DNA from: Prosthecobacter debontii
GTDB taxonomy: Bacteria; Verrucomicrobiota; Verrucomicrobiia; Verrucomicrobiales; Akkermansiaceae
Assembly: GCA_945869465.1 (NCBI GenBank)
Contig: CAMBPB010000002.1
Span: 27,874-91,873, forward strand
Reading direction: 5' to 3'
DNA: 64,000 nucleotides
The position numbers and the translations under genes were made by a program. Shown here piece by piece: positions 18,855-41,751 of this stretch (the first letter of the stretch is position 1; every line of letters starts with the position of its first letter). The notes under the pieces were generated by a model, which was given only the letters and a program-made list of their open reading frames with translations, was not told the origin of the DNA and did not search any database.

Positions 18855-20354
18855 TCACTCCTCCTCCGACCCGCCGAGGGTGACGTTGATGTTGTATTTG
18901 TTCTGAAGGTGCGCGTGGGCCTGGCCGGCCTGGCCGGCCTTCGGGTAGCGCTTGCAGGTGAGTTGGAAGGTGCGGATGGCTTTCTCCTTGTCCTTGGCCT
19001 CCTCATAGGTGAAGCCGATCTGCAGGGACGCTTCGGGTGCGGCGTTGTCGATGACCTTGATCTGATTGTAGAGAACGATGGCCTCCAGCGGTTCGCCGAG
19101 CTTGCGGTGGCAGGCCGCCATGCGGAAATAGTTGTCCGGGAAGCGGTCGATCTGCCGGTAGGTGGCGATGGCCTTCTTCCAGTCCGCCAGCTTTTCGTAA
19201 CACTCCGCGATCGACCACAGGTAGTCGCCGGCGTGATCGCCATCGATCTCTATCAGTTTCCGAAAGACCTCCATGGCTTCCGGGATCTTGCCCTCTTCGA
19301 GAAACATCGCGGCGATGTTTTTGCGCCCGGCCACCACGTCCTTGAATTCTTCATACATCCGGCGGGCATCGGCGCGTTTCTCGCGCTGTTTGTACCAGGC
19401 CGCCATCCGGCCGAGCAGGTCGTCGTCGCGGCCGAAGCGTTTGCCGATTTCCTCATAGAACTTCCATGTTTCGCTGGGCCGGCCGAGCGTGGCGTTGAGG
19501 TCGGCGGCCCGATAGAGGAGTTCCTTTTCGATCGCGGGGCGTTCGACGGCTTCGGCCCGCAAGGTGGTTAGAAGCTGGTCGGCCAGCTTGAGCGCGGCGG
19601 GTTTGGTGGCGGGCTTTTTGAGCAGGTGTTCGACGGTTTTGGCCGAGAGTCCGTACACATTGTCGAAGAGTTCCGGTCCGGCGTAGGTGGTGGCCAGCGC
19701 CTTGCTGCCCTCGTCGAGGCGCTGGGCGAAGAAGTGGAGTTCGGCGAGTTCGCGGCAGGCGGCGATGCAGGTGGCTGTGGCCGTCTCGGTGCGTTTGACC
19801 TTGAAGGTGAGATCATTCAGCAGGGCGAGGCGCTCGACCTCGTCCTGATGGAGCCGGGCGTAGTGGAGCAGGTCCACGCGGGAGCGAACCGCGATGTCAT
19901 GATCGGGGTATTCCTTGACTAGGAAACGGAAGGCGGTCTGCGCGCTTTTGACCTCGCCCATGGTGCGATAGGCATCGGCGATGCAGTAGGCGGCCATCGT
20001 GGCTTCGTGGGATTCCGGCCAATAGTCGATGACCGATTGGAATCCCTCGCGCAGCGCGGTCTTGGGTTTCTTGAGCTGCATCATCGTGTGGCTCCACATG
20101 AGTTGGGCGTAAGGCGCGCCGGGACTTTTTTCGTAGAGAGTTAGAAATTTCTCATACTCGGCGAGGGCGACTTTGAAAGTGCCGTTGGTGTAGTGTTTTT
20201 CAGCGATCTTGATCTGATATCGCTCGACCTCGCGCATCTTTTCAAAGGTGGCGAGCTGGATTTGTTCGAGCGGGGAGAGCGCGGCGCGCGAGGCGGGGGC
20301 GAGCGCCAGCAGCAGGCAGGCGGCAAGCAAGGTGAGGGTCGGGCGGGTTCTCAT
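18855..20354 (-). CDS. Secreted tetratricopeptide-repeat protein
   Basis: ATG at 20354 overlaps the upstream stop (ATGA); signal peptide MRTRPTLTLLAACLLLALAPASRA; YbgF/BamD-like TPRs. Confidence 0.85.
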   Translation of the reverse strand: MRTRPTLTLLAACLLLALAPASRAALSPLEQIQLATFEKMREVERYQIKIAEKHYTNGTFKVALAEYEKFLTLYEKSPGAPYAQLMWSHTMMQLKKPKTALREGFQSVIDYWPESHEATMAAYCIADAYRTMGEVKSAQTAFRFLVKEYPDHDIAVRSRVDLLHYARLHQDEVERLALLNDLTFKVKRTETATATCIAACRELAELHFFAQRLDEGSKALATTYAGPELFDNVYGLSAKTVEHLLKKPATKPAALKLADQLLTTLRAEAVERPAIEKELLYRAADLNATLGRPSETWKFYEEIGKRFGRDDDLLGRMAAWYKQREKRADARRMYEEFKDVVAGRKNIAAMFLEEGKIPEAMEVFRKLIEIDGDHAGDYLWSIAECYEKLADWKKAIATYRQIDRFPDNYFRMAACHRKLGEPLEAIVLYNQIKVIDNAAPEASLQIGFTYEEAKDKEKAIRTFQLTCKRYPKAGQAGQAHAHLQNKYNINVTLGGSEEE

Positions 20355-21769
20355 TTCGCGGTGGCATCGAGCCATTTGTTGTATTCGGCGTGGGCGTAGT
20401 AGATAACATTGGTTCCGAGCTGATAGCATGACTCCCAGATTTCCTGCGGGACGCCGGAGTGGCCGTCCGCCCAGGCATCGCCGATGTCGCCGGGATGGTA
20501 GTAAACGACGAGGCGTCCGTCCACCACCCAGCCGAGGGCATTGGAGCGTCCGTGTGGGGCGACGATGGGAAGGCGCGGGAGCAAATACGGGACGCGATGG
20601 ATCGGGTGGTCCAGATAGACCGAGATCGGCTCCACCTTGGGCAGCACCTTGCGCATCATGGAGACGAACTGGCCTTCCCACCCGGAGCTGCCGCCATTGT
20701 CACCGAACAGCATGCCGTGGTGATCGAGCAGATAGGTGCGCAGAATGTTGATTTCCGCGTCGCTGACGTGGATGTTCTGTTGGCCGGTCATGTAAACCAT
20801 CGGCGGGCTCTTGCGGGCGGGAAAACTCTTGAGCCGGCCGATTTCCATCGGTTCCGGCCGGTCGTTGACGGGGTGGCCGAGACGCACGCCGTATTCGGTG
20901 AGCAGGTTGAGATCCGAGCCGCGGTCCATGTCCTGGGACCAGTCGCCGCCGTCATACTTGAGCCGGATGAAGCGGACCTTGCCGCGGGTGGTGCCGGTGG
21001 AGAATCCGGCCCCCTCGCCTTTGCCTTGGCCGATTTTGTAGAGATGCTCGGTGACTTCGAGAACCTCGAGTTTCACGTCATCGATGGGTGGGGGATTGAA
21101 GAGAATGCTGCTGTAGGGATTGATGACATACTTCTTGTTGATGACCTTCTGGATTCTAACGATCTGCCTGATTTGTTTTTCCTCCCCGCCGCCTATCGGC
21201 GATTCATAGATGCCACAGCCCGTGAGACGGGTCAGGATGAGGAAGACCAGGCCGAAGAGGCAGGAGTAGGTGACGAGGGTGAAGAGGGACTGGCGGAGCT
21301 TGCGGCTGGTGCGGCCGAAATACCACGCCACCAGCTGGCGGGGATCCCAGATGCGTTGGGGAGTGGCAGGCGGGGTGGCGCGTTTGGTTTCCCGGTCGAT
21401 CCACCAGACGGCCCAGCCAAGGCCAAGGAAAAACGCGCCGATCGTGCCGGCAAGCGAGATCAAGGCGGCGAGTTCGTAGGCCGAAACCAGCAGCGGCAGA
21501 TGGGCGGCGAGTTGCCAGACGGGGAAGTAACAGGCGCTCTGAACCGCGCGGTAAACCACCGCAGGACCGTTTCGCCAGCGCCGGAGCCAGTAGTAACAAA
21601 CCGGAATGGCGGTTAGAAAGCCGGCCGCCTGGATCAGGGGGGCTAACATGAAACCAACCCGGGCATCGAGCCAGAGCAGGCACCACAACCCGGCGTAAAG
21701 GCCGGTGAGCACGACCGGACGTCGGGCGTGGTGTCGCAGCGATTCCCTGATCCGGGGCCAATCCATCAC
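20351..21769 (-). CDS. DUF4159-domain protein with N-terminal TM region
   Basis: Four hydrophobic segments, then FIRLKYDGGDW, PMVYMTG, HPGDIGDAW, YQLGTNV. Confidence 0.82.
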   Translation of the reverse strand: MMDWPRIRESLRHHARRPVVLTGLYAGLWCLLWLDARVGFMLAPLIQAAGFLTAIPVCYYWLRRWRNGPAVVYRAVQSACYFPVWQLAAHLPLLVSAYELAALISLAGTIGAFFLGLGWAVWWIDRETKRATPPATPQRIWDPRQLVAWYFGRTSRKLRQSLFTLVTYSCLFGLVFLILTRLTGCGIYESPIGGGEEKQIRQIVRIQKVINKKYVINPYSSILFNPPPIDDVKLEVLEVTEHLYKIGQGKGEGAGFSTGTTRGKVRFIRLKYDGGDWSQDMDRGSDLNLLTEYGVRLGHPVNDRPEPMEIGRLKSFPARKSPPMVYMTGQQNIHVSDAEINILRTYLLDHHGMLFGDNGGSSGWEGQFVSMMRKVLPKVEPISVYLDHPIHRVPYLLPRLPIVAPHGRSNALGWVVDGRLVVYYHPGDIGDAWADGHSGVPQEIWESCYQLGTNVIYYAHAEYNKWLDATAK

Positions 21770-22224
21770 TCAAGATCCTTCAGGAAGTCGTCGCCCTTGT
21801 TTTCGAGCGGGTTTTTGTTCGGCGGGGCTGTTAGCTCGTCACCGACGCCGAGGGTGGAAGGCGCATCGGGTTTGGGCGGCGCCTGTGGGACTTCCGCAAC
21901 GGCGGGAGGCGCCGCCACCGGGGGCGCAGGAGTGTTCGTCGTAACGGGAGCCGGGGCTTGTTTGCCGCCGAGGAAAAACGGGATGGCGGTGAATAACAGG
22001 ATTCCGCCCGCGACAAGGCCGGTGGAGAGGATGAGCGAGCGGGCGAGCTGGCTGGAGGAAACCACGCCAAGCATTTCCTGCGGGCTCTTGCCTTTGAGTT
22101 CGCGCAGGAACGCCTGCAACTCCTGCACGGTGGCGCGCGAGTTGCCCTTGAGTTCGCGCAAGTCGGCGGCGGTGCTGGCCAGCGCGTTGCGTCCGGTTGC
22201 GGAAGGGTTGGGTTGGATCTTCAT
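21766..22224 (-). CDS. Single-TM hypothetical protein with Pro/Ala-rich C-terminus
   Basis: Overlapping start/stop with both neighbours; one hydrophobic helix. Confidence 0.75.
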   Translation of the reverse strand: MKIQPNPSATGRNALASTAADLRELKGNSRATVQELQAFLRELKGKSPQEMLGVVSSSQLARSLILSTGLVAGGILLFTAIPFFLGGKQAPAPVTTNTPAPPVAAPPAVAEVPQAPPKPDAPSTLGVGDELTAPPNKNPLENKGDDFLKDLE

Positions 22225-22637
22225 GGAGTGGCGGGTTTCTCTTCGGGTTCGAGGATATGGATCAAATCGCCGCCCGCTTCACTGATGGCGGCGATGACGG
22301 GTTCGAAGTGGCTCGCCCTGGCCTCGCGGTGGACTTTGAGGAATACGTTGCGCTGGCCGGCCGGCGCGTCGCCGAGAATTTTTGATAGGGCAGCGGCCAG
22401 CTCCGCGGGAGAGGTCTCCTTGCCGTCGAGATAGGTTTTGTATCCGGTATCGATCGTGACACTGGCGCGCGGCGCGGCGGCCATCGTGACATCCTTGAGT
22501 CTGGCCGGCTGCCACTGGATGTGGCTGTCGTCCTGGGCGCGGGCGAGGATGACGAAAAAGATGAGCAGCAGGAAGGCGATGTCACCCATCGCGAAGGTCG
22601 GGACCGATGCGGTTAGTTTTTTGCGCGGGAGTTTCAT
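22221..22637 (-). CDS. ExbD/TolR family protein (second copy)
   Basis: MKLPRKK...AMGDIAFLLLIFF; ATG at 22637 overlaps the upstream stop. Confidence 0.88.
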   Translation of the reverse strand: MKLPRKKLTASVPTFAMGDIAFLLLIFFVILARAQDDSHIQWQPARLKDVTMAAAPRASVTIDTGYKTYLDGKETSPAELAAALSKILGDAPAGQRNVFLKVHREARASHFEPVIAAISEAGGDLIHILEPEEKPATP

Positions 22638-23056
22638 TTGACGTTGATGGTGCGCTCGGATTCGAGTTCGAGGGTGAGGATGCCGCCGGCCTGGCCGATG
22701 GCCTGCGAGACATGGACCCAGGTCGGGTAAGGTGTATCCGGGGCGCTTTTGACGACCACGATGCGATCGGCTTCGCGGGTTTTCGGTTTGAGGGCGGCGG
22801 CGATGCGTTGGGCGAACTCCGGGAGTTGGAGTGGGCTGCCGTTGAGCACGATGCTGGTGGGGGTGATCGAGACCTCGATGTTCTGGCTTTGCTCGCGTTT
22901 CTCCGTCTTCGCCTCGGTTTTCGGGAGCATCTGGGGCATGCCGGTTTCCGGCTGCACGGCCGCGCAGACGAGGAAGAAGATGATCAGGGTGAAGGCGATG
23001 TCCGAACTGGCACAATCCGGCGGATCCACCAACATTTTACCGCGCTTCAGTTTCAT
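22634..23056 (-). CDS. ExbD/TolR family protein (first copy)
   Basis: SSDIAFTLIIFF, periplasmic domain with VVVKSAPDTPY. Confidence 0.88.
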   Translation of the reverse strand: MKLKRGKMLVDPPDCASSDIAFTLIIFFLVCAAVQPETGMPQMLPKTEAKTEKREQSQNIEVSITPTSIVLNGSPLQLPEFAQRIAAALKPKTREADRIVVVKSAPDTPYPTWVHVSQAIGQAGGILTLELESERTINVK

Positions 23057-23778
23057 GCGTCTTCCTGGTCAAGAGTCAGGCGCAGGGTGACGACCTCGAT
23101 CAACTCGGCGGCCGAGGTCTCCACTTGCAGCACGAATTCATTGATGATGCCGGTGAAGTAGTTGAAGGCCATGTAGGCGGGGATGCCGACGATGAGCCCG
23201 AAGGCGGTGGTTAGAAGGGCCACGCGGATGCCGGATGCGGCGGCCACCACGATGTTCTGTTGGCCGATGTTAGCCTCGATATCGCCGAACGCGACGATCA
23301 TTCCCTGGACCGTGCCGAGAAATCCGAGCATCGGCGCGACGGAGGCGATGGTGGCGAGAATCGGCAGGTGTTTCTCCAGCGCCGCCACGATGTGAACCCC
23401 GCAGTTCTCCATGCTCTTGATGACCTGTTGCTCCATTTGGGCGGGATCGTAATTGAGGCGGCGCAGAACCAAGTATTTCCGTAGTCCGTTAGAAAGAATG
23501 GCGGGCACGGGGCCGCGGGCGGCGTCGCATAGTTCGAGCGATTCCTCGATCTTGTCCTCGGACAAGAGTGCCACGACTTCCTCGCGCAGGGCGCCGGCAT
23601 CGGTCTCCAACAGTTTGAGACTGCGGTAGCGCTCGATGATGACGGCGATGGCGAGGATGAAGAGCGCGAGGATCGGCCACATGAAGAAGCCGCCTTCGAG
23701 CAGGTAGTTGAGGGCTCCGCTCTGGAAAAACCCGGCGGCGAGGGTGGTGAAATCGGCGGGGTGGGAGGACATGGTCAT
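23053..23778 (-). CDS. MotA/TolQ/ExbB proton channel family protein
   Basis: GGFFMWPI, APMLGFLGTVQGMI, ALLTTAFGLIVGIPA. Confidence 0.93.
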   Translation of the reverse strand: MTMSSHPADFTTLAAGFFQSGALNYLLEGGFFMWPILALFILAIAVIIERYRSLKLLETDAGALREEVVALLSEDKIEESLELCDAARGPVPAILSNGLRKYLVLRRLNYDPAQMEQQVIKSMENCGVHIVAALEKHLPILATIASVAPMLGFLGTVQGMIVAFGDIEANIGQQNIVVAAASGIRVALLTTAFGLIVGIPAYMAFNYFTGIINEFVLQVETSAAELIEVVTLRLTLDQEDA

Positions 23779-26700
23779 TCGTTCAGGTTGGCTTCTCTTT
23801 CAAACTGGTCGAGCAGCTCGGGCAGGGCAAGCCGGCCGCGCGAGTATTTGGCGGCGTCGCTTTCGGGAAAATCCCAGCGGCAGCGGTTGTAGCGGCGGAA
23901 GGCGTTGGGGATGTCCTTGGCCATGCGGTAGCTTTCGCCCGCCCAGAAGAGCGCCTGGGCGGTGAGTTCCTGTTCGGGGAAACGTTTCACAAACGCGTCA
24001 AAGGCGAGTCCGGCCTTTCCGAACTTCTCGAGCTTGTAGTGGCACTGGCCGATGCGGAACGCCATCTTGGGCGTCCATTCATGGTTCGGGAAACGCTCGA
24101 TGAACTTGCCGCCGACGGTGGCCGCGACGGCAAACTCCTCCTTCAGATAGAAATGCTCGTTGATCCGCAGCATCACGTTGGCGATGAGCGGGTTTTTCGG
24201 ATAGGTGGCGGCGAGGGTGACGTAGGCCTCCAGCGCTTCGTCGAGCTCGCCCGCCTCCTCGTGGCACTGGCCGAGTTTGTATTGGGCGTCGGGCGCGAGG
24301 TTGTGCTCGGGATGGTTGCGCACGATCGAGCCATAGGCGGCGATGGCCTCGTTCCAGGCCTGCATTTCCTGGGCGAACTGGCCTAGCAGATAAGAGATGC
24401 GCGGGGCGTATTTGGGATTCGGATAGTCCTCGTGAAGTTCGCGCAGGACCCGGCGCCCGGCCTGCAGATCGGCGGTGGCCTCTTCCGCGTGCTTGAGCTT
24501 GCGGTGGCCCTTGAACAGCTCGAAGTGGCTTTCCGCGATGTGAAACTGGGTTTGGATTGCAAGGTCCTCATCCTTGTAAACCTTGCTGAACGCGGCCATT
24601 TCGCCATCCGTGCCGACTGCGACCGGAATCTTGAGTTCGATGACCGGCAGTCCGCTCGGGGTTTGCGCGACGTTGTCGAGATAGCCGACCGTGATGTCGT
24701 CGCCGAAGAAGCACTCGATCTCGCCGGCGAAGTTGCCGGAAGTCGGCTTGGGGGCGGCCTTGAGTGGAAACGATCCGCTGAAGACGCCGCTGTGAGTCAG
24801 GGTTTCCTCCAGCTCGATCGTCTCATCCTCGCCGGAGGCGGTGACGAGGCGCACCATGGCCTTGTCCCGCTTGCCGGAGGTGTCGCCGTCGGGATCGTCC
24901 AGCAGCAGGAACAGCTTTTTGCCGACGTGGGCAATCGTGGCGTCCTCCAGGTATTCCGCGTCGGTGAGGCGCAGGGTGGCGGCCGAGAAGAGCGCGGCTT
25001 TTGCCTCTAGCAGGGTGTCCGGGTCGCCGGACCGGGCGCGGTCATGGTAGCGGGCGGTGATGGTGTCGCTGCCGAGAACATTGAGCACGTGAAGTCCGGC
25101 CGGGGCTTGTTTCGCCCCTTCTTCCGGGGGATCTTCGTTAGATCCGTCATCCGGAGGAAGCACCCTGCCGAGCCTGCCGCCGGCGAGTGATCCCTCGGCG
25201 GGCAGGGCGCCCGCGCTTTCCGCAGCACCTAGCAGGAGCGGAACCTGCCCGACGAAGCGGCCCTCGAACAATGCGGGATTGCGTGACTCATCCATCGTTT
25301 CGTTAGGGGAGGCGAAGGCCCGGGAAAGCACGCACTCGACGCGGGCCTTCGCGCCCTGGTTGGTGGCGACTTCGATCGTGACGGTGCTGCGCGCGTCTTT
25401 CGCCTGGTCCGGATCGATCACCTCCACAGTGAGTGGAAGCCGGTATTCGATCTTGCTAACATGATCCGGCGGCCGGGTTCCCTCTACCGGGATCAGGCGC
25501 GGCGCGGCGGCCACCGGCGTCTCGCTTTCCACAATCTGGATGACGGCGCCGGTGGGTTGATTGAGGAGGACCACGGTCTCGCGGTGGAAGGCATGGCCGG
25601 GAAAGGTGTTTTGTTTGTCGAGATAGCGCAGGTAAACCTTGTCGCCTTGTTTCACCACGATCTTGCCTTTCGCCGGTTGCGCGGCGGTATCGATCTCGGC
25701 GGTGAACACGCCGGTCGAGGGACCGGTCTCGGTCGCGGTGACCTGGATTGGCGGCTGGGCATTCACCTGCACCGCGACCTCCACTGTGTCGCGGTCGAGC
25801 CCGGTATCGAGATCGAAATCGACCACCTCGGCGACGATACGTTCGCCGGGTCCGATGCGCATGAGCTCCTTGCGGCTTCCCTGGACGGAGCCGCCGCCGG
25901 TGCGGGCGAAGTCATAGCCGACTGGCGTGATCCCGCCGTTGTGATAGGTGGCGGATAGATCTTTGGTTAGGAGCTTGTTGCGTTGCGCCGCGCCGGCGGT
26001 GAGTTCGTCGAGATAGGAAACCCGCACCGTATCGCCGGGCGCGAGTTCGAGGATCGGATTGCGGGCGAGTTCGAGCACGTCGGCGGCGGGCGGCAGGTGT
26101 TTGGCTCCGCCACCGCTGACTTCGACGTTGCTGACGGCAATGGCCTCCCCGCGGTATTCGAGAAACTCGAAGTCGATGAATCGCAGCTCGCGGGCCGGCA
26201 TCGCGAGCGTCCAATGGTTGGCCTCGTGTTTGATTTCATCGACCGGAACGACGCCGATCTTGGGCAGGTCCGGTGCCGCGGCGGGATTGAAATCGGCGGC
26301 GGTGAAAGGTCGCATCGTCACGCCGGAGGACTGGCGGTTTTCCCGGGCGCGGAGGGCCTCGACGGATTTGGTTCCGGCCGCGACGATCGAGACGATGGTT
26401 AGTTCATGCACCCCGCGTTTGGCGAACACATCGACGGTCCGGTTGCCCTCGCCGATCGGGAGTTCAAGCCGCCCGTCGAACATGATGGCGGTGAGCTTGC
26501 CGGAGACTCCCAGGCGCATGCCGCCGTCGCGTTCCTGGATGAAGGGGCCGGACCAGACGAGGAAGAACGCTTCCTCGCTCGTTTCGGGCATTTCCCATGC
26601 GAGGCGCTCGACCTTGAGGTTTTCGTGGGGCTCCAGCTTCTTGGTTAGATCGGCGATTTCATCCCAGGTGTAGGTCGAGCGCAGGTTCTTGGCGGGGGTC

Positions 26701-29700: not shown

Positions 29701-30899
29701 GGTGATTTTGCCAGGAACTCGCGGGCCGCGTCCCCGGCCTTGGCGGCGTCCTTCATGCGGTCGCGGTAAACATCCAGGGCCAGCACCGCGCGCAGCTTCG
29801 CCGCTCCCGCGGGATTTTTGCCGATCACCTTCAGCAGCCCCTGCTCGGCGCGGCTCGTATCGTCGCCGCACCACGTGACGTAGGCCCGCGGAATGTCGTG
29901 GCTTGTCACGTCGTGAAGCATCACCTCGTCGCCGATGGTTAGAGCGAGCGCCGTGTTTTTAGACTCGGCGGCGGCATGGGCGGCGCGGGCCAGGGGCTCG
30001 TAGCGATCGTCGCGGCGCGGATAGGCGGCGAGGTAGCGGCGGGCTTCGGCTTCGATGTCGGCGGGCGGTTTTTTCGCGGAGATCATCGCCGAGATCAAAC
30101 TGCGATGCGCCTCGTCGCGGCCGGGGGCGATGGCCTTGCGAAACGACTGGATGGCGTTTTCATGTTGCCCGAGTTGGGATTCAAACTGGCCGGTGCGGAA
30201 TCCGAGGTCGCGCTGGCGGCTTTCATTCATCGGGGCCTTGCGGCGGACGAGGGCCTTGGCGATTTGCAGGCCGTCGGCCCATTGTTCGGCGCGGCCGGCG
30301 GCATCCATGCCCTGAAAGCCAACGTCGGTTAGAGCCAGGTCGGCGGGAAGTTTGTCCACCAAGCCGATTGCCAGAGCGGTGGCCTGTTTGAAGGACGGCG
30401 CGTTGTTCGCCGCCATCCACAACCGGAGCGCGCGGATGCCTTGCCCGGCGTTGCCGCCATTCTGCCAGATATCCCGGCGCTGGGTGGCGGCGCCGGTGCC
30501 TCGGCCGCTGCGCTCGAAGGCGGTGGCCAGGCGATCGCGCGCTTCATTGGCTAGCGCGTGGGTGGGAAAGAGTTCGAGAAACTGGCGGCCGGTGGTGATG
30601 ACGTCATCGTGGCGGGCGGTGGCCGCGTAGCCATCGATCAACTTGAGCGTGACTTCCGCGCGGCGCGGGTGCTCGGTCTGGGCGCGCGAGAATTTCCCGG
30701 CGGTCCGGATCAGGCCGAAGACCTGGCCGTCCTGCCAGTAGAGATCGATGAGATCCAGCATCAGCTTGGCGCCGGCCGGCGAGGCCTCGGCGGTTTCCTT
30801 GAGGCGGGCTTCAAGATCGGGCGCCTTGTCGGCTGGGGCGGCGATGGCGTGGCTGCCCAGCACGAGCAGGAGGGTGAGTTGGCGGAAAAGTGTTTTCAA
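23775..30899 (-). CDS. Giant (2374 aa) secreted TPR protein with repeated beta-rich modules and F5/8C- and PA14-like segments
   Basis: TTG start overlapping the upstream TGA; signal peptide; TPR blocks; five DxDxD...GxF modules; AIDHDLKTFWRS...SLSVDM. Confidence 0.85.
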   Translation of the reverse strand: MKTLFRQLTLLLVLGSHAIAAPADKAPDLEARLKETAEASPAGAKLMLDLIDLYWQDGQVFGLIRTAGKFSRAQTEHPRRAEVTLKLIDGYAATARHDDVITTGRQFLELFPTHALANEARDRLATAFERSGRGTGAATQRRDIWQNGGNAGQGIRALRLWMAANNAPSFKQATALAIGLVDKLPADLALTDVGFQGMDAAGRAEQWADGLQIAKALVRRKAPMNESRQRDLGFRTGQFESQLGQHENAIQSFRKAIAPGRDEAHRSLISAMISAKKPPADIEAEARRYLAAYPRRDDRYEPLARAAHAAAESKNTALALTIGDEVMLHDVTSHDIPRAYVTWCGDDTSRAEQGLLKVIGKNPAGAAKLRAVLALDVYRDRMKDAAKAGDAAREFLAKSPAEDSWSEEIIKSLYDSAPSDEVFRKDLALVTASAQAFPHLGGFQDRVWNPAPADKNRNRDWLAAKKNYQNDGIARLWRQTREEGGKSGQACQELLDKSPSPENRLRLLARLAYVYRHHLGGKSKEVAAKHYETLCREIPKDLDAAARWLEAAGFANREMQLTAAHHLLTLPPADIPPDTWLRLCESKDEAIIKQAIPWIAASSRGSLYPLTHSSRLGDLINELGMKTEAVAWWRSRMDLNPNDSESVSCALRVAGTLEAAQAKSFLQSRFEADTDFHGAYAGEIANLAFRASDFPAMEAILKIAITRAAQSPFRPAGMGEWPARGWLETARNAKDWPDGQKARVFRIVRDLDLGRLSAEAGMELLDDEPRSIDRLLHTQRLILTAEPHYESWKRIFPFAQAAMAREDHTLAAAILNGLLNSIRSVGEAEMTEARALLRKTYSRMGSLSTDIPSDSPIAPLLQVVLHLRLGESDLAEQAYDQNRKLFDAHRAELPVELILFAAEFHISQGTPQDQERAEDILRGWLIKFGAAENVDIRDKARIQLLLAKNYQRAGQFDIARAEFTTVLNVYKDQPEAVNARFGIGETYMAQKVYDQAGEIFTDLAESPVPAISIRANFLRGVVSLRQDNHDEARRIFLSVLENAPDADLANETLFNLAEVYGIEQRFLTQLETLRTVGRLGQESKLWHTPGTAISVVVQDSDLGISHGDTRIPVVIRTEPGNDHEESFLTSGGAGKGIFLTEVPTILGEAKPKDGTLQVTGGDTITVDYPEDFKKQFQFEFLSNTRLQIASDGHLEVASSEILNEPEATFTDTLKQEVASTEVAQSRSAARPKDQIKPGNLIYVQVEDGDRDLTANPDKVGIKLTASSGDEVQLGIEEQSQHGGVFQGTVRTGELPAGAKASDSALDHSPLMAIDHDLKTFWRSEPDGAAPKSLSVDMKELRPVESVVLTTPDAEQEAPVRMRARGSHDGRFWFSLGEFPAPKPAAHVGFPTPEMRLRIYKTPAKNLRSTYTWDEIADLTKKLEPHENLKVERLAWEMPETSEEAFFLVWSGPFIQERDGGMRLGVSGKLTAIMFDGRLELPIGEGNRTVDVFAKRGVHELTIVSIVAAGTKSVEALRARENRQSSGVTMRPFTAADFNPAAAPDLPKIGVVPVDEIKHEANHWTLAMPARELRFIDFEFLEYRGEAIAVSNVEVSGGGAKHLPPAADVLELARNPILELAPGDTVRVSYLDELTAGAAQRNKLLTKDLSATYHNGGITPVGYDFARTGGGSVQGSRKELMRIGPGERIVAEVVDFDLDTGLDRDTVEVAVQVNAQPPIQVTATETGPSTGVFTAEIDTAAQPAKGKIVVKQGDKVYLRYLDKQNTFPGHAFHRETVVLLNQPTGAVIQIVESETPVAAAPRLIPVEGTRPPDHVSKIEYRLPLTVEVIDPDQAKDARSTVTIEVATNQGAKARVECVLSRAFASPNETMDESRNPALFEGRFVGQVPLLLGAAESAGALPAEGSLAGGRLGRVLPPDDGSNEDPPEEGAKQAPAGLHVLNVLGSDTITARYHDRARSGDPDTLLEAKAALFSAATLRLTDAEYLEDATIAHVGKKLFLLLDDPDGDTSGKRDKAMVRLVTASGEDETIELEETLTHSGVFSGSFPLKAAPKPTSGNFAGEIECFFGDDITVGYLDNVAQTPSGLPVIELKIPVAVGTDGEMAAFSKVYKDEDLAIQTQFHIAESHFELFKGHRKLKHAEEATADLQAGRRVLRELHEDYPNPKYAPRISYLLGQFAQEMQAWNEAIAAYGSIVRNHPEHNLAPDAQYKLGQCHEEAGELDEALEAYVTLAATYPKNPLIANVMLRINEHFYLKEEFAVAATVGGKFIERFPNHEWTPKMAFRIGQCHYKLEKFGKAGLAFDAFVKRFPEQELTAQALFWAGESYRMAKDIPNAFRRYNRCRWDFPESDAAKYSRGRLALPELLDQFEREANLNE

Positions 30900-33091
30900 A
30901 ATCCTGCTTTCTTGAGCGCTTCGACAATCTTGTTGGCTTCCGGGGCGATGGCGCTTTCCGGGTAATCGTTGATGAGTTGCTCGAAACGCCGCCGGGCTTC
31001 CGGCTTGCGATCAAGCTTGTAGAGGCAGCGCCCGTAGTTGAAGAGGATGACATCGAGGAAATTGGCGTCCGGGTGGTCCGAGAGCACGTTTTCAAACACA
31101 TCGACCGCCCGCTTGTAATCCTCCTTCTGATAGTAAAAAGCGGCCATCTTCGCGACCGCGTCGCCGACGCGTCCGGAATCGGGAAACTTCTCGTAAACCT
31201 GCTGATAGGCGAGGAAGGCCTTCTCGAAAAGCTGGCTGGATTGTTCCGCCACCGCCTTGAGAGCCATCGCTTCATAACATTCTCCGATGTAGAACTGGCC
31301 CTCGCCGCGAAGTTTGCTGTTCGGCAGTTTGGTGATGCTTGTGTAGAGGCTGATGGCCCGCAGGTGGTTCTCCCGCTTGCGTTCGACGTGGGCCTGCTGG
31401 AGCATCGCCTCGTCGATGAAGGCACTGGCGGGAAACTCGGCTAACAAGCGCCGGCTCATGCCGAGCGCGAGGTCGAGTTCATCCATGGCGAAGTAGATGC
31501 GCCAGAGCTGCACGTAGGTTTCCTCCAGCAGTTTTCCTCCCGCCCCGCGCGCCTGTTCGAGGATCTCCTCGCAAACTCCAAGCGCCTCGGTGTATTTCAA
31601 GTCGGCCTTGGCGTTGAGGCCGAATTCCTTGTAGTGGTTGCCAACTTCGGTTAGCGCCGTGGCGGTGCGGACTCTCGTTTTCAGGGCCAGTTCCTCGTCG
31701 GAAATGTCGGTGCGCGTCACCCGCACTTCGCCCAGGTTGCCCTCGATGATCCTGGCTTCGGCGGTCCGCACCAGCGGGCTTTGCCCGAGGTGGCGCTCGT
31801 CGAGGTAAACCAGGCGGATGGTCTGGCCGGGCTCGCCGGTCAGGGTGCCCTCGGCGGTGCCGGGACGCAGCGGCAGCGCGCAACGGAAGATTCCCGCCTG
31901 AGCGGTTTCCCGCAGGGTGACCGGGGTGCTGCGCACCATCACCAGCGGGTCGATCTGTTGTTTCATGTCCTCGCCATCGGCGCCTTCGGTGAGTTCCCCG
32001 CTGGCCACGCGCTTGGCGAGTTCGTCATCGATTTCATCGGTCGTTTTGCGCCGGAACACCTGCACTTCGGCGGCGATCGTGTCGGGCCCGGGCGTGGTGT
32101 CGTGGTCGGCGTCGGAAACCTGAAGGTGGAGCGGCTTGCCGAGCACCGCGGCCTGGATTTCCCGCTGATAGGATCCGTCCGTGATGCGGGCCAGTCCGTT
32201 GCCCACGACGACGACCTCCTTGAGGCGCTTCTGGTCGAAGGTCTTGCCGGCGGTGTGGGCGTCGGTGTAGGTCACGCTGACGGTGTCGCCGCCGCGGACC
32301 TCGAGGACTCCGTTGTTAGGGGCACGCGGGCCGAGGGTGGTGGCGATTCCGCCGAGGGCCATCCGGGCGTTGCGCCCGACCAACTCGCAGGGCACCGTTT
32401 CCTCATCGCCACTCTGGGTTGTGCAGCGGACTTTCACCTGTTCCCCGACCGGCAGGATCGCGAAATCCTGGTCGTCGATTTTGATATGGAGGCGCTTGCC
32501 GGCCTCCACCTTGTCGATTTTCGAATCCTCGATGGAGAGGGCGGTGCCGACTTTTTCGAGGGCCTCGATGGCGCGGCTGTAGTGGCCGAGTTTGAAGTGG
32601 CCGAGACCGATGTAGTAATACGCCTCGTTGACCTGCGTGGAAGCGGGGAAACGCTCGATCACATCGCGCATGATGGTGAAGCACTTGCCGTAGTTGGCGG
32701 ACTCGTAGTAACAGGTGCCGGTCTTCAGATAGGCATAGGCGCGGCGCTCGTCGTTTTCGTTGCCTTCCACCGCCGCGGCTTCGTAATGGAGGCGGGCCTT
32801 GTCGTAATCGCGCGTTTCCTTGAGCAGGTGATCGGCGAGGCGCAGGTGCGCGTCGAAACGAACCTGGCTGCGCGGGTAGCGCTCGACGACGGATTCCCAA
32901 ATCTCCAGCGCCTTTTCGTTTTCGCCAACCTCGCGGCGGGCATCACCCGCCTGCAACAACTTGCGGGCCGCGCGGTCCTCGATGATCGACCCCCGCTCGG
33001 CGGCGGGCGGGGCTGGTTCGGCCGCCGGCAAGGGGAGTGCGAGGACTACGGAAAGAATTATGAAGAGAAGCGAATTAGACATTTTTTGCAT
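30896..33091 (-). CDS. Secreted TPR protein (731 aa) with two of the same beta-rich modules
   Basis: Signal peptide; TPRs at both ends; DQDFAILP and DADHDTTPGPDTI modules. Confidence 0.85.
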   Translation of the reverse strand: MQKMSNSLLFIILSVVLALPLPAAEPAPPAAERGSIIEDRAARKLLQAGDARREVGENEKALEIWESVVERYPRSQVRFDAHLRLADHLLKETRDYDKARLHYEAAAVEGNENDERRAYAYLKTGTCYYESANYGKCFTIMRDVIERFPASTQVNEAYYYIGLGHFKLGHYSRAIEALEKVGTALSIEDSKIDKVEAGKRLHIKIDDQDFAILPVGEQVKVRCTTQSGDEETVPCELVGRNARMALGGIATTLGPRAPNNGVLEVRGGDTVSVTYTDAHTAGKTFDQKRLKEVVVVGNGLARITDGSYQREIQAAVLGKPLHLQVSDADHDTTPGPDTIAAEVQVFRRKTTDEIDDELAKRVASGELTEGADGEDMKQQIDPLVMVRSTPVTLRETAQAGIFRCALPLRPGTAEGTLTGEPGQTIRLVYLDERHLGQSPLVRTAEARIIEGNLGEVRVTRTDISDEELALKTRVRTATALTEVGNHYKEFGLNAKADLKYTEALGVCEEILEQARGAGGKLLEETYVQLWRIYFAMDELDLALGMSRRLLAEFPASAFIDEAMLQQAHVERKRENHLRAISLYTSITKLPNSKLRGEGQFYIGECYEAMALKAVAEQSSQLFEKAFLAYQQVYEKFPDSGRVGDAVAKMAAFYYQKEDYKRAVDVFENVLSDHPDANFLDVILFNYGRCLYKLDRKPEARRRFEQLINDYPESAIAPEANKIVEALKKAGF

Positions 33092-33110
33092 ATTGTTCTG
33101 CTTGTGCCAA

Positions 33111-33461
33111 CTAATTCTCCGTAAAAATCCTTACTGACAGCGGGATGAATGGCAGAGTCATTCCGAAAATATAAACGGTGATGAAGACGATTGAGATGCT
33201 CAAAGTCAGGGTGACAGTAAGTAGGCTTAGTTCGAAGCTCTTGCGGGATCTTGCGCTGTGAAATACGGCCCACGCAAACAGTGGCAGAGGAAAGAGGTAA
33301 ATCAGAACGGCATCGGGGTAAAATGCCTTTGAAATCATCGGAAGCTCCATCGATGACGATCGATGGAACGATCCGATCTCAGAGGCAAGAACATGGCAAA
33401 CGAACGCGGTTAAAGATGCCGCGATCACGGAAAGCCAGACACTGGTGAGCCGGAGCATCAT
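33111..33461 (-). CDS. Small multi-TM hypothetical protein with atypical, AT-richer composition
   Basis: MMLRLTSVWLSVIAASLTAFVCHVL...FGMTLPFIPL; exactly fills the gap between two operon genes. Confidence 0.6.
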   Translation of the reverse strand: MMLRLTSVWLSVIAASLTAFVCHVLASEIGSFHRSSSMELPMISKAFYPDAVLIYLFPLPLFAWAVFHSARSRKSFELSLLTVTLTLSISIVFITVYIFGMTLPFIPLSVRIFTEN

Positions 33462-33465
33462 GGTC

Positions 33466-34722
33466 TCAGCCGAACAGCTCGTGGATCGGATTGGCCTCCT
33501 TGCGGACGAGGCGCATCGGGCGGCCTTGGGGGGTGATGATTTCCTTGTCGAGTTTGATGCCCAGCGCGAGGCAGAGCGAGGCGTGGAGATCGGCGACGTT
33601 GACGGGGCGCTCGGCGGGTTCCATGCCGTCCTCGTCGGAGGCGCCGATGATGGTGCCGCCCTTGATGCCACCGCCGGCCATCAGGCAACTGAAGCAGCGC
33701 GCCCAGTGGTCGCGGCCGGCGCCTTCGTTGATGCGCGGGGTGCGGCCGAATTCGCTGAGCACGACCACCAGCGTTTTTGCTAACAAGCCGTTGGCCTTGA
33801 GGTCGGAGAGCAGCGAGGCGATGCCGGGGTCCATGGCCGCGCCGTGCGCCCGCATGGCCTGGAAGATGTTGCCGTGGTTGTCGAAGCCGCCGCGGTTGAC
33901 CTGCACGAAGCGCACGCCTTTTTCGACGAGGCGTCTTGCCAACAGCGCGCCGCGGCCGAACTCGGTGTTGCCGTAACGTTCGATGGTCTGGGGCTTTTCC
34001 TCATCGAGTTCGAAGGCTTTCAGCGCGGGGCTTTCCATCAGGGCGACGGCATCCTTGAGCGCGGTTTCGGAGGCTTTCATTTCGCTGGCACCCACGCTGC
34101 CGGAAGTCCGGGCGTTCATGCGCTCGAGGATCTGGAGCCGCTGCATTCCCCGGGCGTGACTGATGCCCTCGGGAAACGCGAGGTAGGGGTCCTTTTCGCC
34201 GGGGCGTCCGACGAAGTAGGCCTCGCATTGCTGGCCGAGGTATCCGGCGCGCGACGCCTGGCCGCTGATGCTGACAAAGGCGGGCAGGTCGCCTAACGGT
34301 TCGCGCTCGTGGACCACGATCGAGCCGAGTCCGGGATGGAGGATGTTGGGCGACTGGCCGAAGCCGGTCTGGAGTTCATACTGGGCGCGGCCGTGGTCGC
34401 CATTGGTGCCGGCGATCGAGCGGATGAGCGCGGCATGGTGCATCTGCTTGGCGAGTTGCGGGAAAATCTCCGAGATTTCCATGCCGCTGACGGAGGTCTT
34501 GATCGGCGCGAACTCGCCCTGGACCTTGCGGCCGGGTTTCGGGTCCCAGGTGTCGAGGTGGCTCATGCCGCCGCTGTTCCAGAACAGGATCACGTGTTCG
34601 GCGCTGGCCTGGCCGGGCACCGTGCGGGCCAGCAACTCGCTGATCGGCATGCCGAGGATCGACGCGCTGAACATCTTCAGCATCCGGCGGCGGGTGATCT
34701 GGTAATCGGTGCAGGCGTTCAT
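33466..34722 (-). CDS. DUF1501 family protein with Tat-like signal
   Basis: ITRRRMLK; GGMSHLDTWDPK, LARRLVEKGVRFVQV, SEFGRTPRIN, GRDHW. Confidence 0.93.
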   Translation of the reverse strand: MNACTDYQITRRRMLKMFSASILGMPISELLARTVPGQASAEHVILFWNSGGMSHLDTWDPKPGRKVQGEFAPIKTSVSGMEISEIFPQLAKQMHHAALIRSIAGTNGDHGRAQYELQTGFGQSPNILHPGLGSIVVHEREPLGDLPAFVSISGQASRAGYLGQQCEAYFVGRPGEKDPYLAFPEGISHARGMQRLQILERMNARTSGSVGASEMKASETALKDAVALMESPALKAFELDEEKPQTIERYGNTEFGRGALLARRLVEKGVRFVQVNRGGFDNHGNIFQAMRAHGAAMDPGIASLLSDLKANGLLAKTLVVVLSEFGRTPRINEGAGRDHWARCFSCLMAGGGIKGGTIIGASDEDGMEPAERPVNVADLHASLCLALGIKLDKEIITPQGRPMRLVRKEANPIHELFG

Positions 34723-34739
34723 GGTTTTGAAAGGTGATG

Positions 34740-37184
34740 TTAGGGCAGGAAGCGGAACTCGTGGCTGTTGAGCAGGGCCCAGCGCAGGTCGGCCATGCCT
34801 TCGAGCTTGTCATTCGAGAGAAGGGCGCGGGCCTCGGCTTTTTCCTCCGCGCCGGGAAGGCGGGTCAGGATTTCCTGATAGACGTGGTCGATGGCGAGCT
34901 CGGGATTTTTTTGCAGGATGCGGTGAACGGGCTCCAGCGGGCCGACGCGGGACGCCTCGTGGGTCATGCGGCCGTTGAGCATCATGAGTTGCTGGCGCAG
35001 CGAGGAGGAAGTGTCGCGAAACTCGCCAAGTCCGGTGCGGTCCGGTTGGCCGAAGACGCGGAGGAAATGGGAGGGAGGGGCGGGCGTGGCCATGTGCATG
35101 GCGCTGTCGAGACGCGGATTGTCGTCAACAGTTTCGGTGACTGTCTTGGTGGTGAACTTCATGGTCTCGCCCTGCGATTGCTTCTGCATGGCCATCATCT
35201 TTTCCGCCGCGATTTGTTCGTCGGACATCGCGCGCATTGAGTCGAGTTCGGTGCGCTCCTGTTTGGTTAGGATGGCATTGAAGTCCAGCTTGAGGGTCGA
35301 TTCGAGATCGTAACCGTCGCCGCGGGAGGCGGGGGATCCGGTGCCGGCTTTCATCGCGGTTTCCTTGTTAGCCGGACCCTTGGCCTTGGTGGTCTCACCC
35401 GTGGGAACGCGGATCTCGCGGCTGACCTGCTTTGCATTGGCGCCCTCCGGCCATTTGAAATCGCCGAGGTGGCCGGCGATGACCACGCTGTCGAAAAGCA
35501 CCTCGCCGAGCATGCGGCGGGTGGGGGCGGCGGCGAAACTCTTCTCGCTTTCCTCGCGTTTCACGATGTGGGTTTCGGCGGGCAGGGTCGCGCGCCGGTA
35601 GGCATCGGAGAGGGTGATGATGCGGATCAGGCTGCGGAGGTCGTAGCCGCCGGCGACGAACTCGCGGGCGAGAAAATCGAGCGTCGTGGCGTTGTGCGGC
35701 GGATTGTAGTCGGAGAAGTTGTCGAGCGGTTCGACAAAGCCGTGGCCTAGCAGTTCGGCCCAAACGCGGTTGACGAAGGCGCGGGCGAAGTAGTCGTTGT
35801 GTGGATCGGTGATGAGCCCGGCGAGCTGGTTGCGCAACTGGCTGGTGCGGTAGATGTCGCGCTGCACATCGAGGGCGCGGCTGTCTTTTTTGGCTTCCTC
35901 AAGGACCGGATCGCGCGGGCTGCCGAGCGCGGGTTCGACGGCATCCAGCAGGGCATCGAGGGCGGCGGTGGCTTTGCCGGACGAGGCGGTTTCCTGCTCG
36001 CCGCGGCGGATTTTTTCGAATCGCACAAGGTGCTCCGGGGCCTTGTCAGGTTTGGCTAACTGAAACGGAAAACGTGGCGCCACCGGGATCCGGGCGCTGG
36101 TGCCGGCCTTGTCCTCCGGCGGCCAAAGCACCGACATTTCATTACCCTCGGTGGTGTAAACCATCCCGTCCTGGCGGCCCTGCACTTTTTTGGTTTTCCC
36201 GAAGAAGGCGGCAAAGTGATAGAAATCCTTCTGTTTCCAATCGTCGAAGGGATGGTCATGGCACATCGCGCAGCCGATCCGCACGCCGAGAAACACCTGG
36301 GCGGTGGCGGCGGCGAGTTCCATCGGCTTGGCGTCATCACCTAGCAGATAGCCCACCGCCGGATTGGAGTTGGCGCGGCCGGACGCGGCGATGAGTTCGC
36401 GCACCAGAACATCGTAGGGTTTTCCGTGTTCGATCGAGCCGTGGATATAGGCAAGCAACTGGTTGCCACCGGCGATGTTCGAGCGGATCCGCAACATGTC
36501 GGACATGAAGATGGTCCAACGATCGGCGAAACGAGGGTGGGCGACGAGTTTTGCGACAAGTTTCCCACGGCGGTCGAAGCTCCAGCCTTCATATTCGCGG
36601 ACCTCGGCCATGGTCGGGATGCGCCCGATGAGGTCGATGGTGGCGCGGCGCAAAAAGGCGGTATCGGTGATGGGCGAGGTGGTGGTGACTTGGGTGCCGG
36701 CGTTTTCGCGTTTCAGGATATCGTCCAGCATCGCGGCCGCTTCGGCGGGCGAGGCGGGGGCTCTGTCCGGCATGGCGACGCGCTTGATCGGAGTGGGTTT
36801 GCGTTCGGTGAGGGTGATGCCCGACGGCCAAGGCGCACCGGCGCGCACCCAGGCATCGAGCAGCTCGACTTCCTCGTTCGCCAAGGCCTGGCCTTCGTCG
36901 GGCATGACGCCGTCGTCGATGGGGCGAAGGTGGATGCGCACGAGCAGCTCGCTTTTCGCGGTGTCGCCGGGGACAATCGCATCAGCGGTATCGCCGCCTT
37001 TGAAGATGGCATCGCGGGTGTCCATGCGCAGGCCGCCCTTGGTTTTGTCGGCATTGTGGCAGCGGACGCAATTGCGCTCGAGGATCGGCTGGATGAGTTC
37101 CGCGAAGTCCGGCCCCGCGGCGGTAGCTGGGAGGACGATCGCAAGAAGTCCGAGGGCGGGGAGGATGGAGGATTTGGTGAGCAC
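34740..37184 (-). CDS. Planctomycete cytochrome c (PSCyt1) + DUF1549 + DUF1553 protein
   Basis: CVRCH, KGGLRMDT, FLRRATIDLIGRIPT, GCAMCHDHPFD, FVNRVWAELLGHG, WALLNSHEF. Confidence 0.92.
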   Translation of the reverse strand: MLTKSSILPALGLLAIVLPATAAGPDFAELIQPILERNCVRCHNADKTKGGLRMDTRDAIFKGGDTADAIVPGDTAKSELLVRIHLRPIDDGVMPDEGQALANEEVELLDAWVRAGAPWPSGITLTERKPTPIKRVAMPDRAPASPAEAAAMLDDILKRENAGTQVTTTSPITDTAFLRRATIDLIGRIPTMAEVREYEGWSFDRRGKLVAKLVAHPRFADRWTIFMSDMLRIRSNIAGGNQLLAYIHGSIEHGKPYDVLVRELIAASGRANSNPAVGYLLGDDAKPMELAAATAQVFLGVRIGCAMCHDHPFDDWKQKDFYHFAAFFGKTKKVQGRQDGMVYTTEGNEMSVLWPPEDKAGTSARIPVAPRFPFQLAKPDKAPEHLVRFEKIRRGEQETASSGKATAALDALLDAVEPALGSPRDPVLEEAKKDSRALDVQRDIYRTSQLRNQLAGLITDPHNDYFARAFVNRVWAELLGHGFVEPLDNFSDYNPPHNATTLDFLAREFVAGGYDLRSLIRIITLSDAYRRATLPAETHIVKREESEKSFAAAPTRRMLGEVLFDSVVIAGHLGDFKWPEGANAKQVSREIRVPTGETTKAKGPANKETAMKAGTGSPASRGDGYDLESTLKLDFNAILTKQERTELDSMRAMSDEQIAAEKMMAMQKQSQGETMKFTTKTVTETVDDNPRLDSAMHMATPAPPSHFLRVFGQPDRTGLGEFRDTSSSLRQQLMMLNGRMTHEASRVGPLEPVHRILQKNPELAIDHVYQEILTRLPGAEEKAEARALLSNDKLEGMADLRWALLNSHEFRFLP

Positions 37185-41747: not shown

Positions 41748-41751
41748 GGGA

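Follow-up and report, generated by a model that had tools for sequence, protein, structure and literature searches.

The energy of the inner membrane reaches the outer envelope of Gram-negative bacteria by two textbook routes, the Ton and the Tol-Pal systems. In the AglRQS-Glt machine of Myxococcus xanthus, the motor proteins are one that is TolQ-like and two that are TolR-like, tetratricopeptide repeat (TPR) proteins being part of the complex, and bacteria of the Planctomycetes-Verrucomicrobia-Chlamydiae (PVC) group are known for the uptake of whole polysaccharides. Among PVC loci with such motor genes is MUL1 (Davey et al. 2023, as cited in PMC12418764, PMC13174399 and PMC11480725). Without this locus of Akkermansia muciniphila (Amuc_0543-0548, encoding Mul1B, Mul1A, ExbD, ExbD and ExbB), mucin is reportedly not taken up (PMC12418764, PMC13174399). 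Other PVC loci, named for a 'vWA force-transducer' and represented by the type found in Tichowtungia aerotolerans, combine the gene of a TPR protein, one tolQ-like gene, two tolR-like genes and the gene of the transducer (Mol Biol Evol 2025, PMC12204202). Kamneva et al. described in PVC bacteria the association of DUF1501 proteins with PSCyt/PSD1 modules, presenting a twin-arginine leader and CxxCH motifs (Kamneva et al. 2012, PMC3542564). The present analysis concerns a gene cassette in which an ExbB/ExbD motor, exported TPR proteins and a DUF1549/1553-DUF1501 pair are found side by side, carried in a stretch of 64,000 nt from Prosthecobacter debontii (GCA_945869465.1, contig CAMBPB010000002.1, positions 27,874-91,873); this whole stretch is hereafter the window, and all coordinates of the cassette are window positions.

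As judged from sequence and synteny, the cassette is an ancient and rarely retained accessory unit of ten genes, whose motor is always flanked by two membrane anchors and by exported scaffolds. With a probability that we put at roughly 0.55, it encodes a PVC envelope machine driven by the proton motive force, which is neither Ton nor Tol-Pal and which likely serves to capture, handle or import a polymer in an energy-dependent manner. The ten genes, co-oriented on the minus strand between positions 18855 and 37184, were backed by family matches (Pfam, NCBIfam) or by conserved synteny, and are given below from the upstream end, lengths being in amino acids (aa), together with an insert placed between the second and the third gene:

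34740-37184, minus strand: exported protein of 814 aa with PSCyt1, DUF1549 and DUF1553 domains (Pfam, above cut-off)
33466-34722, minus strand: DUF1501 protein of 418 aa with the twin-arginine leader TRRRML (Pfam, 355 bits, E 5e-106)
33092-33465, no strand assigned: lineage-specific 374-bp insert with a doubtful hydrophobic open reading frame (ORF) of 116 aa at 33111-33461 (GC content, blastn/tblastn)
30896-33091, minus strand: Sec-exported TPR protein of 731 aa (TPR Pfam families, TIGR02795)
23775-30899, minus strand: Sec-exported TPR/beta-sandwich protein of 2374 aa, hereafter the giant (Pfam, NCBIfam)
23053-23778, minus strand: stator channel subunit of the ExbB/TolQ type, 241 aa (MotA_ExbB PF01618, 93.9 bits)
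22634-23056, minus strand: ExbD/TolR paralogue 1, 140 aa (PF02472)
22221-22637, minus strand: ExbD/TolR paralogue 2, 138 aa (PF02472)
21766-22224, minus strand: bitopic transmembrane, Pro-rich protein of 152 aa (no family; orthologue alignment)
20351-21769, minus strand: DUF4159 membrane protein of 472 aa with five transmembrane helices (PF13709, 107.7 bits)
18855-20354, minus strand: Sec-exported TPR protein of 499 aa, the last gene of the cassette (TPR Pfam families, TIGR02795)

A preliminary description of this region had counted eleven co-oriented genes, of which ten were supported, while the eleventh, the 116-aa ORF, is a doubtful gene in a low-GC insert without counterpart. In fact, the 374-bp stretch presented a GC content of 48.7% against ~62% in its flanks, neither the stretch nor its ORF gave a blastn or tblastn match in ~150 related loci, the ORF matched no Pfam or NCBIfam family, and no repeats were found flanking the insert or in the upstream gap. 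Since the DUF1501 stop and the TPR start nearly abut in most other genomes of the family, the stretch would be an insert peculiar to the P. debontii lineage. The other structural features of that description were recovered. All seven junctions from the 731-aa to the 499-aa TPR gene presented the claimed 4-bp overlap of start and stop codons (ATGA, TTGA or GTGA), including the last one, where the ATG of the 499-aa TPR gene at position 20354 overlaps the DUF4159 stop, and the same overlaps were seen in the loci of relatives. The leaders, Pfam matches and alignments bore out three secreted TPR proteins, all beginning with Sec-type leaders, a DUF4159 protein anchored in the membrane and a Pro-rich protein with a single transmembrane helix. 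The absence of a TonB C-terminal domain or a beta-barrel gene was also confirmed, as no TonB_C, Plug or beta-barrel family was detected in any cassette protein (Pfam, NCBIfam and relaxed Pfam scans), nor any TolA, TolB or Pal family (Pfam, NCBIfam). A scan for consensus promoters and terminators stayed at chance level, with 2 promoter-like sites against 3 expected, and Rfam gave no match across positions 18000-40000.

An ExbB scan of 185,579 species genomes yielded 158 related loci, the best 80 of which were kept for locus comparisons. Wherever the contig was long enough, tblastn recovered the genes on one strand and in the order 731-aa TPR, giant, ExbB, ExbD1, ExbD2, 152-aa protein, DUF4159 and 499-aa TPR, and this order was found in Verrucomicrobiales, Opitutales and Planctomycetota. 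The genes for ExbB, ExbD1, ExbD2 and DUF4159 were all complete ORFs in 61 of the 80 loci, the others being cut by contig ends, and the 152-aa gene was placed between ExbD2 and DUF4159 in 69 related loci. Such an arrangement goes far beyond chance, and the synteny survey across PVC genomes that had been proposed as a check showed the cassette order to be kept across three deep clades.

The motor itself was strongly conserved. ExbB shared 65-96% identity across Verrucomicrobiota and Planctomycetota, and its Thr motifs, LGFLGTVQGM in the second transmembrane helix and LLTTAFG in the third, were at least 98% conserved in 79 orthologues; the same degree of conservation was observed for the transmembrane Asp19 of ExbD1 (78 orthologues) and of ExbD2 (75 orthologues), the latter protein being always paired with ExbD1 in related loci. 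The earlier claim that the TTAFG motif of ExbB and the transmembrane Asp of both ExbD proteins are retained was borne out in this way. Because these motifs and both Asp19 residues are conserved across 75-79 orthologues, the stator is, at sequence level, intact, every residue for proton-coupled function being kept, and the presence of two distinct ExbD proteins is a fixed feature. None of the described equivalogs accommodated these proteins: ExbB scored 104.5 bits against the TolQ model TIGR02796 (cut-off 221) and 64.1 bits against the ExbB model (cut-off 206), and the TolR model TIGR02801 was matched at 25.8 bits, its cut-off being 127.3.

The distribution of the cassette was sparse. In the family Akkermansiaceae, an ExbB orthologue was present in 24 of 151 genomes, belonging to 6 of 20 genera, and a DUF4159 orthologue in 25 of 151; among the other sampled genomes, no cassette orthologue was found in 300 Verrucomicrobiota or in 200 Planctomycetota. 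The cassette is therefore a rare accessory one, which argues against a housekeeping role of the Tol-Pal kind. A machine for envelope integrity or division resembling Tol-Pal, in bacteria without TolA, TolB and Pal, would agree with the higher score of ExbB against TolQ than against ExbB, with the tol_pal_ybgF cut-off being passed by all three scaffolds (see below) and with the neighbourhood in the window, where the cassette adjoins the genes of PBP2 and RNase G. This reading is nevertheless distinctly unlikely, since the cassette was found in none of the 500 genomes sampled elsewhere in the two phyla and is lacking in 84% of those sampled in the family, contains no TolA, TolB or Pal gene, and lies in a PBP2/RNase G neighbourhood that is not conserved, close relatives with 87-94% identical RNase G lacking the cassette at this site. 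More broadly, RNase G (37928-39583 in the window) was 84-94% identical in six genomes (G022, G004, G035, G055, G084 and G134) in which the cassette was found neither downstream of this gene nor elsewhere in the genome. Downstream, the cassette is followed by the UvrB gene; its upstream neighbours are the RNase E/G-family gene and the PBP2 gene.

It was also observed that the closest DUF4159 orthologues (78-81% identity) occurred in another genus group, the carriers of the same genus presenting only 66-72%. Behind this pattern and the six non-carriers there may be a transfer inside the family, differential loss or a problem of binning. A recent transfer across phyla was considered and not supported, as a tree of the concatenated ExbB, ExbD1, ExbD2 and DUF4159 proteins kept Verrucomicrobiales, Opitutales and Planctomycetota as separate groups on long branches; since the three clades are separated in this way, an old cassette that suffered many losses would fit the pattern. 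Besides the cassette, a paralogous and shorter system was encountered (L081-L083, in the genomes G004, G094 and G035), whose giant-like protein measured 686 aa in L081 and 1668-2100 aa in the other two loci, and which further presented an ExbB of 214 aa (31% identity), two ExbD, a gap of ~0.5 kb and a DUF4159 protein of 537 aa (33%). This shorter system was widespread, including Victivallales and Phycisphaera, and was absent from the P. debontii genome; G094 harboured both systems.

The two genes placed ahead of the scaffolds encode the DUF1549/1553-DUF1501 pair, and this pair precedes the scaffolds in most lineages. The 814-aa protein carries one CxxCH at residue 39 (CVRCH, in PSCyt1) and a second one at residue 305 (in DUF1549). 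In all 11 family genomes with upstream sequence, which belong to several genera, the genes of a PSCyt protein (63-72% identity) and of a DUF1501 protein (80-87%) immediately preceded the motor block on its own strand. Similarly, both genes occupied the same place in six of the seven Planctomycetota and Opitutales loci that were extended upstream; in those six, DUF1501 was 61-70% identical and the first protein 45-49% identical over residues ~150-814. The cytochrome c domain PSCyt1 was confined to the copies of Akkermansiaceae; orthologues from Planctomycetota and Opitutales start at DUF1549 with a single CxxCH. The RR leader motif was kept by all DUF1501 orthologues. The preliminary description had named a lack of co-conservation as what would speak against joining the DUF1501 pair to the ExbBD-TPR block, and the opposite was found (11/11 and 6/7).

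In the other family genomes checked, the distance between the DUF1501 stop and the start of the 731-aa TPR gene was mostly -4 to +7 bp, with one case of 59 bp and three of ambiguous starts, and it reached 200-400 bp in the P. debontii window (374 bp) and in several Planctomycetota genomes. These longer gaps, together with the dozen or more DUF1501 paralogues estimated in the genome, would suit the possibility that the pair merely adjoins an independent operon of motor and TPR genes. This possibility is weakened by the synteny and appears quite improbable, given that the orthologous pair held the same position and strand in 17 of 18 genomes from three deep clades, that its DUF1501 was 61-87% identical among them against ~30-35% for the paralogues, and that most family genomes present a gap of -4 to +7 bp. 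As a separate observation, two loci of Pirellulaceae/Planctomycetota (L073 and L076) presented a DUF1501 paralogue (30-31%) on the same strand downstream of DUF4159, and the match to the 499-aa TPR protein was missing there.

As to the nature of the DUF1501 protein, its Pfam clan is, as we take it, the alkaline-phosphatase superfamily, and its motifs GGMSHLD and GRDHW resemble the metal and nucleophile motifs of that superfamily. It is probably a metal-dependent hydrolase or transferase of this kind.

In the absence of TonB and TolA from the cassette, two of its proteins present the build of membrane anchors. The alignment of 29 orthologues of the 152-aa protein from three deep clades revealed a cytoplasmic segment, a transmembrane helix, a Pro/Ala linker and a C-terminal motif. 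The N-terminal cytoplasmic segment was conserved (..ATV.EL..FL..LKGKSP.EMLG..), the Pro/Ala-rich linker was variable in both length and sequence, and the last ~25 residues were conserved and ended in an acidic tail (LGVGE..APP..NPLE...DDFLKDLE). Neither Pfam, relaxed scans included, nor NCBIfam assigned this protein to a family. It would thus be of a TonB-like build that has no head and carries a conserved tip.

The DUF4159 protein was modelled with AlphaFold2 from 29 orthologues, with a mean predicted local distance difference test score (pLDDT) of 70.6. Model and alignment agreed on a four-helix membrane bundle in residues 1-130, for which relaxed Pfam scans gave no family. This bundle is followed by a conserved cytoplasmic motif, W..P..AW....KL.QS (W141, P143, A148, W149, L158, Q160 and S161), that leads into the fifth transmembrane helix (residues 157-180), by a linker of 80 aa (182-261) that is highly conserved in sequence and has a pLDDT below 50, and by a periplasmic alpha/beta head (262-472). 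The best Foldseek match of the head was 4I66, the structure of the uncharacterised DUF4159 protein Hoch_4089 of Haliangium (TM-score 0.77 on target), after which folds of class-I glutamine amidotransferases were ranked; no vWA fold was present among the first 50 matches. In the orthologue alignment, the His/Asp-rich motif YYHPGDIGDAWADGH of the head was invariant and no Cys was conserved, so amidotransferase chemistry is unlikely.

At the anchor helices, L158, Q160, S161, Y168 and F172 of the DUF4159 protein and S58 and L60 of the 152-aa protein were invariant. The 152-aa protein had been put forward as the force transducer, and it remains a candidate, now one of two: having a motif ahead of the membrane, a transmembrane helix, a linker and a head, the DUF4159 protein is, according to model and alignment, predicted to be at least as good a candidate.

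All three TPR proteins passed the cut-off of TIGR02795 (tol_pal_ybgF, 90.1 bits), the 731-aa protein with 102.5, the giant with 128.4 and the 499-aa protein with 91.7 bits. The 731-aa protein is composed of an N-terminal TPR region, a beta-rich middle and a C-terminal TPR module similar to YbgF/CpoB, and its orthologues were 72-87% identical within the family and 50-57% in other phyla. The giant consists of ~1050 aa of TPR/alpha-solenoid, ~1000 aa of beta-sandwiches and, again, a C-terminal YbgF/CpoB-like TPR module, and was collinear from end to end across phyla (2337-2547 aa, 41-80% identity). The AlphaFold2 model of its residues 1060-2135 (22 orthologues, pLDDT 72) was all-beta, with at least 10 beta-sandwich domains in a chain, whose top Foldseek matches were arrays of Ig-like domains in the Nitrosopumilus S-layer and of MG domains in alpha2-macroglobulin. 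The TM-scores were low (0.1-0.17), as would be expected for beads on a string, and the matches point to a shared type of bead and to no shared assembly. A weak NCBIfam match of the giant to an anammox S-layer protein agrees with Foldseek, and a PDB sequence search with the giant middle gave nothing meaningful.

The resemblance of the giant middle to S-layer Ig arrays, together with the 1:2 pattern of motor genes, would be compatible with a motor of the AglRQS-Glt kind that drives surface motility or serves to assemble or secrete a surface layer, the giant being the element that is moved or assembled. This interpretation is also improbable, slightly more so than the one modelled on Tol-Pal: the cassette contains no Glt-type beta-barrel, no secretin and no GltG/J-like gene bearing TonB_C, the giant carries only a Sec leader and ends in YbgF-like TPR modules of the periplasmic type, and the Foldseek scores are as low as stated.

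Other motors are available in the same genome. The P. debontii assembly comprises 3.59 Mb and is 93.5% complete; it contains five ExbB-family genes, the one of the cassette included, and four ORFs with a Plug domain, all of them outside the cassette. The other four motors, on further contigs of the assembly, are as follows:

Contig C9: ExbB and ExbD with a Pro-rich TonB-like protein of 413 aa (36149-37390), a receptor gene lying 16 kb away
Contig C98: ExbB and ExbD with a TolA/TonB-like protein of 264 aa (6694-7488)
Contig C31: ExbB and ExbD with a TPR protein of 804 aa
Contig C14: ExbB and two ExbD with a TPR protein of 1029 aa

TonB_C (PF03544) had no match anywhere in the genome at E <= 0.01, and the bitopic Pro-rich proteins of 413 and 264 aa had no Pfam match at the same threshold. 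The apparent lack of TonB in this genome is softened accordingly, because Pfam misses two TonB/TolA-like proteins that lie beside other motors. Since these proteins have motors of their own elsewhere, functions of the Ton type have their own candidate proteins and the cassette need not serve them. It could be argued that the cassette is an ordinary Ton energiser for receptors encoded elsewhere and that its flanking genes are passengers, as four Plug-domain ORFs exist and Pfam found no TonB_C in the genome. This is highly improbable, considering that the TonB-like protein of 413 aa has an ExbB and an ExbD beside it and lies 16 kb away from a receptor gene, that the cassette partners are strictly co-conserved with their 4-bp overlaps, and that the cassette ExbB scores far below the ExbB equivalog cut-off. 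The preliminary description had itself allowed that a canonical TonB and receptor elsewhere might account for the motor; a Ton-like locus on contig C9 and four Plug ORFs do exist, and a strictly syntenic cassette is not explained away by them.

Taken as an envelope machine of its own, the cassette would operate as follows. A pentamer of ExbB around a heterodimer of ExbD1 and ExbD2 would turn proton flow into movement, which would be passed to the 152-aa and DUF4159 anchors in place of TonB or TolA. Acidic C-terminal peptides being known ligands of TPR domains, the acidic tip of the 152-aa protein might dock in the TPR groove of a scaffold, and the DUF4159 head would bind another partner. The scaffolds would span the periplasm and hold the DUF1549/1553-DUF1501 pair, outer-membrane partners would be encoded elsewhere, and the whole would serve to capture, handle or import, with an input of energy, a polymer that is extracellular or belongs to the envelope and is probably an anionic glycan. 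Beyond the gene content, conservation and distribution set out above, this proposal draws support from MUL1, where ExbB, two ExbD and periplasmic TPR proteins form what may be taken as an analogous locus, reportedly required for mucin uptake, from the joint absence of the cassette and of the whole DUF1501 family from gut Akkermansia, and from the other motors of the genome, which could serve Ton-like and MUL1-like functions.

Several points weigh against this proposal. No outer-membrane component is encoded in the cassette, and the contacts between motor and transducer and between peptide and TPR groove are pure inference. The conserved His of the SHLS motif of TonB and TolA was found in neither anchor helix (both alignments), and the only hint of sugar binding was a match of the giant to the F5/8 type C family below the Pfam cut-off. 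PDB sequence searches with the DUF1501 and PSCyt proteins detected no solved relatives. Given the gaps of 200-400 bp between the DUF1501 and TPR genes in some lineages, the cassette may consist of two adjacent transcription units. Moreover, DUF1501 genes were present in 133 of 151 family genomes against 24 of 151 for the motor, and since most family genomes carry DUF1501 without it, the motor is no general requirement of the DUF1501 family.

A bolder version of the proposal, which we regard as unlikely though less so than any of the alternatives above, would make the cassette a third class of proton-driven force transduction across the envelope beside Ton and Tol, with the PVC-specific DUF1549/1553-DUF1501 pair at its operative end. 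In it, the heteromeric ExbB-ExbD1-ExbD2 motor would pull on the scaffold through the tether and the DUF4159 anchor, and the scaffold would feed an anionic polymer to the Tat-exported DUF1501 enzyme (Tat being the twin-arginine translocation pathway). If true, this would give two hugely expanded and uncharacterised PVC protein families their first functional context. Few uncharacterised protein families of Planctomycetes and Verrucomicrobia are as large as DUF1549/1553 and DUF1501, and one orthologous pair of them is now tied to a motor; being single-copy, this pair offers a defined genetic entry point, unlike the dozens of redundant paralogues. The sparse distribution also narrows the hypotheses, as it indicates an accessory and not a housekeeping function.

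The relation to MUL1 was considered separately, since it is the nearest relative with a reported phenotype. A gut Akkermansia genome (G064) was taken as the reference for MUL1. Its gene order, with MreB, RNase G, AsnC, three hypothetical proteins, ExbD, a hypothetical protein, ExbB, endonuclease III and a 3D-domain protein, is the one tabulated for Amuc_0540-0550 (PMC11480725, supplement). The counterpart of Mul1A in this genome was a TPR protein of 1077 aa with only a weak TPR match to the giant, and the locus contained no DUF4159 gene, no giant and no DUF1501 pair. The cassette was absent from the genus taken as gut Akkermansia, and DUF1501 was found in 0 of its 18 genomes, in agreement with PMC4960237. 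The idea that the cassette is the orthologue of MUL1 was rejected, as the ExbB proteins are only 30% identical, the partners differ and the P. debontii genome harbours a separate MUL1-like locus. This locus, on contig C14 (~21810-27851), was collinear with MUL1 and its proteins compared with those of G064 as follows: ExbB 53%, ExbD 38% and 44%, the Mul1A-like protein of 1029 aa 27% along 1035 residues (E 2.6e-75), with 25% for a Mul1B-like ORF. This MUL1-like locus conflicts with PMC13174399, according to which aquatic Akkermansiaceae lack MUL1 synteny. The distinction of the cassette from MUL1, and the presence of a MUL1-like locus in an environmental Akkermansiaceae genome, bear on that recent published claim. 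With regard to genome position, MUL1 of gut Akkermansia was convergent to MreB/RNase G (L123, G064:C1:660000-679900), and the P. debontii cassette lies just downstream of RNase G/PBP2 (37928-44000); the common position of two different ExbB systems near RNase G may be a coincidence.

Compared with the described systems, the cassette keeps the motor and replaces all other parts of Ton and Tol. With the Ton system it shares an ExbB and ExbD family with the residues of the proton path and a Pro-rich bitopic partner, and it differs from it by having neither a TonB C-terminal domain nor a receptor. With Tol-Pal it shares a motor of the 5:2 type that is most similar to TolQ/TolR, and TPR modules of the CpoB/YbgF kind, placed within much larger proteins; it differs by the lack of TolA, TolB and Pal, by two TolR paralogues, giant scaffolds and a sparse accessory distribution, and by scores below the TolQ and TolR equivalog cut-offs. 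The analogy with AglRQS-Glt drawn in the preliminary description holds for the pattern of one TolQ to two TolR, accompanied by TPR proteins, and no further: the outer-membrane barrels of Glt and the TonB_C-bearing GltG/J have no counterpart in the cassette, nor was one noted for the cytoplasmic AglZ/MglA partners, at which no search was aimed, and homology was seen at the level of the motor family only.

The PVC loci with a 'vWA force-transducer' come closer. The cassette fits their gene pattern, neither contains TonB or TolA, and the build of their transducer, in which a disordered linker connects the transmembrane helix to a globular domain at the C-terminus, is matched by the DUF4159 protein (PMC12204202). 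The differences lie in the transducer itself, for which a vWA fold and the SHLS His are stated there, whereas the cassette protein has a glutamine-amidotransferase-like head, no SHLS His and four extra transmembrane helices, the published 'vWA' proteins being compared by their description. The second, headless tether of 152 aa, two further TPR proteins and the DUF1549/1553-DUF1501 pair are unmentioned in that study. The machine had been called undescribed, which stands for the whole cassette and has to be given up for its parts: the motor half was published in 2025 (PMC12204202) and the DUF1501/PSCyt modules in 2012 (PMC3542564), while neither the ten-gene unit as a whole nor its link with the DUF1501 pair was present in the literature searched.

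Like MUL1 of the same bacterial family, the cassette couples an ExbB and two ExbD with exported TPR proteins, and the two are different systems of similar logic. Finally, the first two genes of the cassette represent a pair of the kind reported by Kamneva et al. (PMC3542564), with a TRRRML leader and two CxxCH motifs; neither ExbB nor TolQ is mentioned there, and it is the cassette that ties one orthologous pair of this kind to a motor.

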